Origin: a virus
Lineage: Duplodnaviria > Heunggongvirae > Uroviricota > Caudoviricetes
Length of the DNA stretch: 12,799 nucleotides
Direction: 5' to 3' (one strand)
Virus record (IMG/VR): IMGVR_UViG_2693429524_000004
Coordinates: 1-12,799 of that record
Below are positions 1 through 3,000 of this stretch, in pieces; the stretch's first letter is position 1; the number at the start of each line of letters is the position of its first letter. Position numbers: made by a program.

Positions 1-3000
1 GATAAAGTGCCGTCGCTCAACTCCACGTATTCCCCTTGTACCTGTCCTGCCATATACTCGCCGTGCTTTGAATAAATTAAAACCCAATCGTCTTGAGCGG
101 GAATTCGCTCACTACAGCTTATCCAACCATCCGGAGTTACCGGAGAGTTGCCCGACAGCTCGTTCAACTTGTAAGTTTGGCTTACAGATTCGGCTTCCAG
201 TGGCGGTAAATCTGGCACTGTTACGCCAAACAACGCTGCCAGTGCACGATAGTTTTGCTCACTGTGATAGCGGCCTTTACAGCGAACCAGTTTTTCCGCA
301 GCGGATTTGATTACTTCCAGTTCTGCTACCCTCTGCTGATACGTTAATGACTCCTGTGCCAGCCCAGCATTCCAGTCTCGCAGTTCTGCTATGCGCTTCT
401 CTGATGCTTCAAGTAACGCCTGCTTATCGCGTAGCGCTTCTTCCAGTTCAGCAACATGGCATTCACTATCAATAAGGTTGTTATCTGCGGCTTCCTGCTC
501 TGATTTGCGCATCAAAACAACGTACTTTAATGCGTCCTGGGCTTTCTGAAATTTCAGTGCATAGTCAGTGGCGATTTTTTCCAGTTCTGCGATACACTTG
601 TTTTGGGCTTCCCGTTCATCCAGCAGTGCCTGCACTACTTCAGGGTTGAAAGCTGCGATATAACGAGCATTAGCAGCAGCTTTTTTCTGTCCATCAAACC
701 CAGGCCATTTGATAACATCTTCGCATCGTTCATCACCGGGCGTGTGCACCGCATATGTACCAGTGTCCGGCGAGATGAATGCACGCCATTCGCCCTGTGT
801 TGCCTGTTTTGCTAACTCACGCAGTGCCTGATAGTCAATCTTGCTCACTGGTTGCCTCCTTTGCGCCACATCGCATTCAGATATCTGTTGTCGTTAACAG
901 AACCGAAACTCTTTCTCTTAAGCAATTCCTCTCTCGATGGCATTGGCTTTACGCGCTGGCGAATAATCATTTCTGCCGGAAGAATGCCGGGATTGTATGC
1001 AAGTCCTCTCATGGTAAATTCCTCAGTCATTACTGATAGCGCCATAGCGTGAGCGGTAATTACGCAGGCGCGGGTCGATATATTCAGGGAATTTGTCTAT
1101 TGTCGCTTTTCGCAACGGTCTCATTGCTGTTTCGTTTGTTCGGTCCTTCTCATCTTTTAACGCGAGTTGTATATCGCGTCGGTACATCCGTTCTGCTTTT
1201 GTTTCTGGTGGCAGATCAATAAACGTGTCGAAAATGTTTTTGATATTTTCCAGCACCTCCGCCTTGGAGCTACCGGAGCAATTGCGCGGGTCATCCGCAC
1301 CATACAGAGGCGCTGGCATAATGGGAGCCTTATTTTCAGTAATCAGAAAGGAGGGTAATCGTTCTGGCTGTAACCATAATCATCTGCATGATTATGGCTT
1401 ACGTTTTTAGAGCGATTGTCTTTATCTTTGAGGCTGGCAACCATGTTGGCGATAGTTTCTGGTTGCTTGCCTTCTGCCTTTTCTTTAAGTGTTTGACCTG
1501 TTTGTGCAATAAACGGGATGCGTATTTCCATCTGGTAGCTGTCTGCGCCAGTCTTTTTGTTTGTGGTTAATACTTTCTGGAGCACTAACCCGATTTTCTT
1601 TCCATGAAATTCAGGAGCAACAAATTTACTGGCGGAAACCATATGTTGCGTTAATTGTCCAATCCCGGCACACCCCATCATGGCGTGGACGACATTTGCG
1701 CCAAATTTATTTTCCGTTCCGTCATTTTTCTGAACACAGACGCTAAGATATTGGATTTTACGTCCGTCGTCGGATTCTCCAGAAAATTCAATAAATTTGG
1801 CTCCTTTTTCTGATTGCTTTAGTTCTGCTTCAGTAATGGTAATGATATGAGCGCCAGTTTCGTTAATAAAACCACCTTGCCCTGCGGTCAGTGCTGCCTC
1901 TTCGTTATAAGTAAAAATCACGTTGCTCATGCGGCGTTTTCCTTAATTTGATGAACATTATTGATGCCGTAGTAATCACAAACAGTGGCATCGACGAAAG
2001 AGAGATCGTTATCAATCTCATTGGAGTCAAACATTCCCATTGGGGATTTAACAGTGTCTGCACCGTTGTTTTTTGTGGTGAAAAAGAACTGGTCATCACG
2101 GGTAAGGGTGCGAAGAACTATAGTAAACATGCCTTCGACAGTGATTTTCTCGTCCAGCATTTTGCCGATAGTCTTCATTTTCACACGCCCCATAGGGGTT
2201 TCTTCGGTATGGGCAAGAAAATAGACTCTCAGGTCATCAGGCGCATCCTGTGCAGCCTTAATGACCTCCCATGCGTGACGGCCTATCTCAGTGAATTTAT
2301 CAAACGATTTTTCTTCTGAGCGGCGCATAAACTCATTGCTCATCACATACTGGAAGTCATCAACAATAACGATTCTTTTCCCGTATTCGTGAGCACGCTT
2401 AATTACAGCAACTATTACGTCCCATTTGTCAGTGGTAACTACGGTTCCTTTTTTTGCTCTGGAATCCCATGCAAGCCAGTCTTTTGATTTAAATGGTAGC
2501 GGCTTGCCTATTGGTTTTATAAGTATTGCTTCCTCTGGATTGATATTTCTCATGCTGGTTGATTTTCCGGTGCCAGACTCACCGAGTATTAATGTCGCAG
2601 TTCCCATAATTTGCCTCAGAATGGTAATTCGGATGGGGAGGAAAGAAACTCGCGCTCATTCATGCGCTCTCTTTGTGCCTGCCATAAACAAAGTTGTTTC
2701 TTTGATTTATCTCCCGCTTTACGCCAGTAACGAGCCTCAGCAATGTGATATTCTCTTTTTAATCGACTTAACTCTGGAGTTTTCGCCAGTTCTACCGGAA
2801 TCATTTTGACCTCCATTTCCTGTAGGCTTCGACGGCCTCACGAAACATCTTTTCATCGCCAATAAAAGTGGCGATAGTGAATTTAGTCTGGATAGCCATA
2901 AGTGTTTTATCCATTTTTTGGGACTCCTGGCTGATTAAGTACGTCGATGAGTCGTTTCCATCCGTCACGTAATTTACGGGTGATTCGTTCAAGTAAAGAT

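Follow-up and report, generated by a model that had tools for sequence, protein, structure and literature searches.

The DNA analysed here is a stretch of 12,799 nucleotides from a Caudoviricetes virus (IMG/VR record IMGVR_UViG_2693429524_000004, positions 1 to 12,799; the whole stretch is called the window in the following). We are almost certain that a region of its leftward early operon is a homologous-recombination module of the HK620 type, carried by a lambdoid phage or prophage. At the centre of this module are two overlapping genes, sak4 and ssb, coding for a RecA-like annealing protein and for its cognate SSB, a protein that binds single-stranded DNA; they are flanked by hkaM on the upstream side and abc2 on the downstream side.

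The sak4–ssb gene pair

The original prediction had described a 226-amino-acid ATPase with Walker A and B motifs, coupled by an ATGA overlap to a 195-amino-acid protein, without naming the strand. Both genes were found where they had been predicted, on the minus strand. The features of the pair are the following:

1927..2607, minus strand: sak4 (hkaL allele), coding for a 226-amino-acid core-only RecA-like ATP-dependent single-strand annealing protein, ATG start
2560..2583, minus strand: codons of the Walker A motif (P-loop) GESGTGKS, Sak4 residues 9-16, from the translation
2356..2373, minus strand: codons of the Walker B motif IVIVDD, Sak4 residues 79-84, from the translation
1927..1930, minus strand: ATGA stop/start overlap of sak4 and ssb, the plus strand reading TCAT
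1343..1930, minus strand: ssb (hkaK allele, SSB-HK620 type, 'SSB-2'), coding for a 195-amino-acid non-canonical single-stranded DNA-binding protein with an OB (oligonucleotide/oligosaccharide-binding) fold, the cognate partner of Sak4, ATG start
1346..1363, minus strand: codons for NDYPPF, the last six residues of SSB and the part of its tail that recruits Sak4, from the sequence

Since the coding strand reads ATGA at 1927-1930, the stop codon of sak4 overlaps the start codon of ssb. The two are real open reading frames and not chance ones, because both gave full-length matches to PHROG families (E=4e-108 and 3e-66).

The ATPase

In the profile search residues 1-220 of the 226 residues of the ATPase matched PHROG 2872, 'Sak4-like ssDNA annealing protein', with the first of these E values. 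A second Sak4-like family, PHROG 124, was matched at 1.7e-5, and the Pfam family AAA_24 at 29.8 bits, above its gathering score of 27. We aligned 61 Sak4 and 53 SSB homologues and predicted the structures of both proteins. Residues G9, S11, G12, G14, K15, D83, and D84 of Sak4 are invariant among the 61 homologues. Sequence searches of the PDB gave no meaningful match for either Sak4 or SSB, and structural relatives emerged by fold comparison only. The predicted fold of Sak4 is nearest to a solved Sak4, followed by RAD51 paralogues, RecA, and RadB; the model consists of the RecA/Rad51 core fold without an extra N- or C-terminal DNA-binding domain. The identity proposed earlier for the ATPase is thus borne out by the PHROG match, the AAA_24 score, and the RecA-core fold.

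We considered the alternative that the ATPase is a generic P-loop nucleoside triphosphatase, for example a helicase loader, a KaiC-like or FlaH-like protein or a packaging protein, and that the neighbouring SSB gene reflects replication. Weak matches to AAA_22, AAA_16, and Zot in Pfam and to FlaH and ArlH in NCBIfam would fit such a protein, as would the RefSeq name, which is merely 'ATP-binding protein'. However, the Sak4 PHROG match extends over the full length at 4e-108, a protein 99% identical to this one anneals DNA and supports recombineering (see below), and for replication the window carries genes of its own in the rightward operon, O and a primase–helicase gene. A generic enzyme is therefore very improbable, and we retain the assignment to Sak4.

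The partner protein and its C-terminal tail

The 195-residue protein matched PHROG 743, 'single strand DNA binding protein', with E=3.3e-66. Its structural model (mean confidence score pLDDT, the predicted local distance difference test, of 80.9) resembles OB-fold proteins that bind single-stranded DNA. The two structural points on which the original prediction hung were thereby settled in its favour, as the ATPase fold lies nearest to Sak4, RAD51, and RecA and the model of the partner has an OB fold.

No result contradicts the reading of the pair; two search results count against that of the partner. The window protein gave no match to DUF669 (PF05037) or to any other Pfam family (E up to 10) and none in NCBIfam (E up to 1); moreover, DUF669 was matched by 13 of the 53 SSB homologues, weakly, the best E value being 0.0052. 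Since 13 weak matches among homologues are insufficient, we do not file the window protein in DUF669 by sequence. The top viral structural match of the model is a DUF669 protein (E=2.9e-14), and the NCBI label for members of the SSB cluster is 'DUF669 domain-containing protein'. In the profile search proposed earlier for Sak4 and for SSB or DUF669 families, the Sak4 and SSB PHROGs were found, the direct Pfam match to DUF669 was not.

The canonical bacterial SSB profile likewise had no sequence-level match in the window protein. In a 2025 survey of lambdoid recombination modules the HK620 protein is termed 'SSB-2' and is not regarded as a homologue of bacterial SSB (PMC12315714). The window protein would work as an SSB and is predicted to have an OB fold, yet the canonical SSB family is not the place to file it.

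The protein ends in ...HADDYGYSQNDYPPF / ...DDYGYSQNDYPPF according to the translation, the final residues being NDYPPF. Residues 177-195 have a pLDDT below 50, and the C-terminal tail is predicted to be disordered. Among the 53 homologues the last 16 residues include a mean of 3.3 acidic residues and of 0.08 basic ones; 32 of the tails end in PF and three in exactly DDDIPF, the tip of E. coli SSB. The SSB-like acidic tail that had been noted before is confirmed.

Because the window protein ends in NDYPPF, several homologues end in exactly DDDIPF, and most end in PF, we also considered that the tail mimics the host SSB tip and captures host proteins that bind this tip. We regard this as rather unlikely. 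Besides Sak4, the phage SSB could then capture RecO, PriA, ExoI, and the chi subunit of polymerase III, and if so, host repair and replication-restart factors would be redirected to phage DNA.

Comparison with HK620 and experiments on the HK620 proteins

The window is colinear with phage HK620 (AF335538) from 864 to 3228, corresponding to 4002-6367 of the HK620 sequence. Sak4 is identical to HkaL of HK620 in 224 of 226 residues and SSB to HkaK in 193 of 195. The gene order cIII, kil, hkaM, hkaL, hkaK, hkaJ (abc2), the gene lengths, the ATGA overlap, the Walker motifs, and the NDYPPF tip are the same in both. Sak4 carries the substitutions D43E and S49A and SSB the substitutions E153V and H179Q, which are conservative or of a surface type; all four lie outside the Walker motifs and NDYPPF. 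HkaM differs by a single amino acid and cIII by two synonymous changes. At the codon level synonymous differences from HK620 outnumber the nonsynonymous ones by 12 to 2 in sak4 and by 6 to 2 in ssb. As the differences are mostly synonymous, both genes are under purifying selection. The window departs from HK620 in its immunity and replication regions, which are of the type found in the Shiga toxin (Stx) phages Min27 and 933W.

HkaL (Sak4) and HkaK (SSB) of HK620 were characterised by Hutinet et al. 2018 (PMC5928155). HK620 Sak4 requires ATP for binding single-stranded DNA and for annealing complementary strands, and does not carry out strand exchange (PMC5928155). HkaK binds single-stranded DNA in gel shifts and has an apparent size of about 95 kDa in size-exclusion chromatography, as a tetramer would (PMC5928155). 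In oligonucleotide recombineering sak4 alone gave a 15-fold gain and ssb alone none, whereas sak4 and ssb together reached the gain of the whole four-gene module, about 210-fold; abc2 added nothing, and hkaM was dispensable in this assay, as the pair matched the whole module (PMC5928155). The recombineering comparison that the original prediction had proposed, both genes against each alone, is therefore already in the literature for the HK620 pair.

The same study addressed the tip of the tail. Without its final six residues, NDYPPF, SSB stimulated recombineering 10-fold less, and in vitro it inhibited annealing rather than stimulating it (PMC5928155). Sak4 bound SSB-covered single-stranded DNA only when the SSB tail was present (PMC5928155). 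A cognate SSB gene lies adjacent to about 80% of sak4 genes (PMC5928155).

As identity is 99% and the functional motifs are unchanged, the published mechanism can be applied to the window genes. By transfer from the HK620 protein, Sak4 of the window would bind and anneal single-stranded DNA in an ATP-dependent manner without strand exchange. The earlier statement that Sak4 works with a cognate SSB holds for the HK620 proteins, to which the window pair is 99% identical (PMC5928155). What the module is, how it works, and where it stands among the lambdoid recombination modules are already known and published. The practical value of the present analysis is one of annotation, in that the two genes can safely be renamed Sak4 and cognate SSB.

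In RefSeq and GenBank the two genes carry the labels 'ATP-binding protein', 'DNA binding ATPase', 'hypothetical protein', and 'DUF669 domain-containing protein', which lag behind the literature.

Proposed mechanism

Single-stranded DNA would be coated by the phage SSB, which has an OB fold and is reported to be probably tetrameric, and upon DNA binding the disordered C-terminal tip of SSB, NDYPPF, would be exposed. The tip would then recruit Sak4, an ATPase made up of the RecA core only, to the SSB-covered strand. With ATP, Sak4 would anneal complementary strands, and no strand exchange would take place. Finally, Abc2 would modify host RecBCD in such a way that the processing of DNA ends leads to recombination instead of their destruction; that Abc2 acts on RecBCD in the window phage too is suggested by lambdoid and P22 biology. 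To judge by the way lambdoid operons are organised, the module is probably expressed from pL through N, and it may serve in phage replication and in mosaic exchange.

The surrounding genes

The order of the genes in the leftward early operon is cIII, kil, hkaM, sak4, ssb, abc2. Besides the central pair, the following features belong to the operon:

1023..1319, minus strand: abc2, anti-RecBCD protein 2, last gene of the module (Pfam Anti-RecBCD_p2, E=3.3e-35; PHROG 656, E=6.4e-44)
2616..2804, minus strand: hkaM, 62-amino-acid protein of unknown function, first gene of the module (PHROG 1723, E=2e-33)
2801..2914, minus strand: kil, lambda-type (Pfam Lambda_Kil, 5.7e-21; limits from the colinearity with HK620)
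2907..3047, minus strand: cIII, lambda-type (Pfam Lambda_CIII, 9.4e-30)
3861..4286, minus strand: N, antiterminator of the leftward early operon, start codon uncertain (Pfam N_peptide, 6.7e-25; PHROG 271, 6.4e-48)

The Pfam search placed kil and cIII immediately upstream of the module genes, as had been predicted. The conclusion drawn earlier from these lambda-like neighbours, that the operon is mosaic, does not set the window apart: kil and cIII beside sak4 are the native HK620 arrangement.

HkaM had no match in Pfam (E up to 10) or NCBIfam (E up to 1). The label of PHROG 1723 is 'recombinase', for which we found no supporting evidence. The dispensability of HkaM was seen in oligonucleotide recombineering, and this always-linked protein could be an unrecognised third component for double-strand substrates, an idea, separate from the mimicry of the host tip, to which we give equally little weight.

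The Chi site GCTGGTGG does not occur within the window. A simple scan of 800-4700 gave five promoter-like sites against 7.8 expected, which is at or below chance, and 12 terminator-like hairpins against 4.4 expected; we base no conclusion on these counts.

Further genes were seen outside the module. On the minus strand, a long open reading frame (1-860) continues past the left edge of the window; its product is coiled-coil-like, and the matching records call it ead or Ea22-like. As it is cut by the edge of the window, it was omitted from the list of open reading frames. Between N and cI lie two genes of unknown function, at 4961-5482 and 5634-5975, both on the minus strand, which match PHROG 2602 and PHROG 3467 (DUF3024-type), respectively. 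The former occupies the site at which Min27-type Stx phages have the serine/threonine kinase gene stk and a RuvC-like gene.

The primase–helicase gene (8523-10403, plus strand) codes for 626 amino acids with Toprim_2 and a DnaB-like helicase domain, and this allele has no intein. Its orthologue in Min27 (L003, 10650-13232) is 99% identical to the window protein over residues 1-371. Beyond this point about 340 additional residues, with matches to Hint and LAGLIDADG domains, interrupt the Walker A loop (GHGK|T) of the Min27 protein, and similarity resumes at TEVVG.

A free-standing HNH endonuclease gene (11385-11912, plus strand; Pfam HNH_3, 4.3e-11) is situated between ninB (10948-11388) and the gene for a Dam-like DNA methyltransferase (11909-12439), with a 4-nucleotide overlap to each neighbour. 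In Min27 ninB overlaps the methyltransferase gene directly. Because the HNH gene is lacking from this overlap in Min27, it looks like a homing-endonuclease insertion.

Distribution and intactness of the module

Window positions 1000-3200 match 340 phage records. At least 80% of this stretch is covered in 64 of them, many being Stx1a- or Stx2a-converting phages. Of 5,426 complete E. coli genomes, 195 have the sak4–ssb DNA, in every case on the chromosome, and the index of the public assembly collection lists 3,216 blocks with the exact SSB protein. We compared five E. coli prophage contexts with differing immunity and replication regions; the lengths and the spacing from kil to abc2 are kept in four of them. 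The fifth (L010) keeps the gene order, but it has a sak4 allele of 218 amino acids and an inserted HNH gene. A more distant relative with about 60% identity was found in Arsenophonus, where a 226-amino-acid gene and an SSB-like neighbour overlap by 4 nucleotides (L004, 3324-4004 and 4001-4561).

In the fifth context (6748-8588; E. coli GCA_025000265.1) the HNH endonuclease gene (201 amino acids; PHROG 374, E=7e-64) lies between the 218-amino-acid sak4 and ssb, so that the ATGA coupling is broken, and the SSB protein is identical to that of the window. This locus had been taken as a candidate for the same SSB with a non-Sak4 partner; the candidate was rejected, the partner being the 218-amino-acid Sak4 allele together with the inserted endonuclease.

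The module could also be a decaying, nonfunctional remnant of a defective prophage. No phage record and no complete E. coli genome contains the full 12.8-kb window in one piece, the best single place reaching 69%, and insertion sequence (IS) elements lie near the module in some related prophages (L006 and L010). In the window itself, however, cIII, abc2, and the four genes between them are intact and as long as in HK620, and the left operon shows neither a frameshift nor an IS element. Synonymous changes prevail in the comparison with HK620 (12 to 2 for sak4, 6 to 2 for ssb), and the exact SSB sequence recurs in the 3,216 assembly blocks. A decayed module thus has as little to recommend it as a generic ATPase, and an intact module of the HK620 type remains by far the best explanation.

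Comparison with known systems

Phage JEP4 (MT740315) and many Stx1a- and Stx2a-converting phages match window positions 1000-3200 over the full length at 97.5-98.0%. They differ from the window in the surrounding immunity and replication genes, and in their annotation the two genes appear as 'DNA binding ATPase' and 'hypothetical protein'.

The abc2 gene shows 72% nucleotide identity to that of HK620, with 38 of 98 residues changed, whereas the adjoining ssb and sak4 show 98%. The abc2 allele of JEP4 is identical to that of the window at 97% of nucleotides. Such divergence of abc2 next to conserved ssb and sak4 implies a recombination joint, a second switch point, in the 23-nucleotide spacer that separates ssb from abc2, and an independent assortment of abc2 alleles.

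More remote proteins resemble the pair mainly in fold. Sak4 of a staphylococcal phage (ORF016; PDB 8rc5, in complex with the SaPI2 Stl repressor) is 13% identical to the window protein. Nothing in the window data points to a role as island de-repressor for the enterobacterial protein. For SSB, the relatives are PrgE of pCF10 (PDB 8s4s), proteins named SSB from Roseobacter phage RD-1410W1-01 and Vibrio phage phi50-12, and DUF669 proteins, all with 13-24% identity. PrgE is described as a filamentous binder of single-stranded DNA that binds double-stranded DNA equally well; SSB-HK620 differs in being a reported apparent tetramer.

With the Red module of lambda (gam-bet-exo) and the arf-erf-abc1-abc2 module of P22 the window module has in common its site in the leftward early operon, downstream of kil, and its overall task, namely phage-directed strand annealing combined with the handling of RecBCD. 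The abc2 gene is common to P22 and the window. The annealing proteins are different: Bet and Erf are Rad52-like and independent of ATP, whereas Sak4 is a RecA-like ATPase. The window module is furthermore without an exonuclease gene, and its annealing protein needs its own SSB (PMC5928155; PMC12315714). In HK620, first annotated by position in analogy to P22, the 195-amino-acid protein was read as an Abc1-type RecBCD modifier and the ATPase as an Erf-type recombinase. Although the genes occupy the site of P22 arf, erf, abc1, and abc2 and are followed by a true abc2, this reading can practically be dismissed, as there is no match to an Erf or Abc1 family but to Sak4-like and SSB PHROGs, structure prediction gives a RecA core for the one protein and an OB barrel for the other, and HkaK is without similarity to P22 Abc1 and binds single-stranded DNA (Hutinet et al., PMC5928155).

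The position of the HK620-type module with respect to Red is best seen in the Stx phage Min27. This phage matches the window at kil and cIII (2812-3235) at 95-96% of nucleotides and again over DUF3024-cI-cro-cII-O-P (5591-10701) at 95-98%. Directly downstream of kil, at the position of hkaM-sak4-ssb-abc2 in the window, Min27 has gam-bet-exo. Its similarity to the window starts at 2812, and the switch to Red-carrying phages is placed at about this position, where kil has its 3' end. Searches with Pfam and PHROG profiles found no member of the Bet, RecT, Erf, and Exo families among the open reading frames of the left operon. Because Min27 shares kil and cIII but has gam-bet-exo in this place, the module can be said to sit in place of Red, and the wording 'in place of Red or Erf' used at the outset was accurate. 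The window is accordingly a clean case of lambdoid cassette exchange, in which immunity and replication regions of the Stx type are joined to a recombination cassette of the HK620 type.
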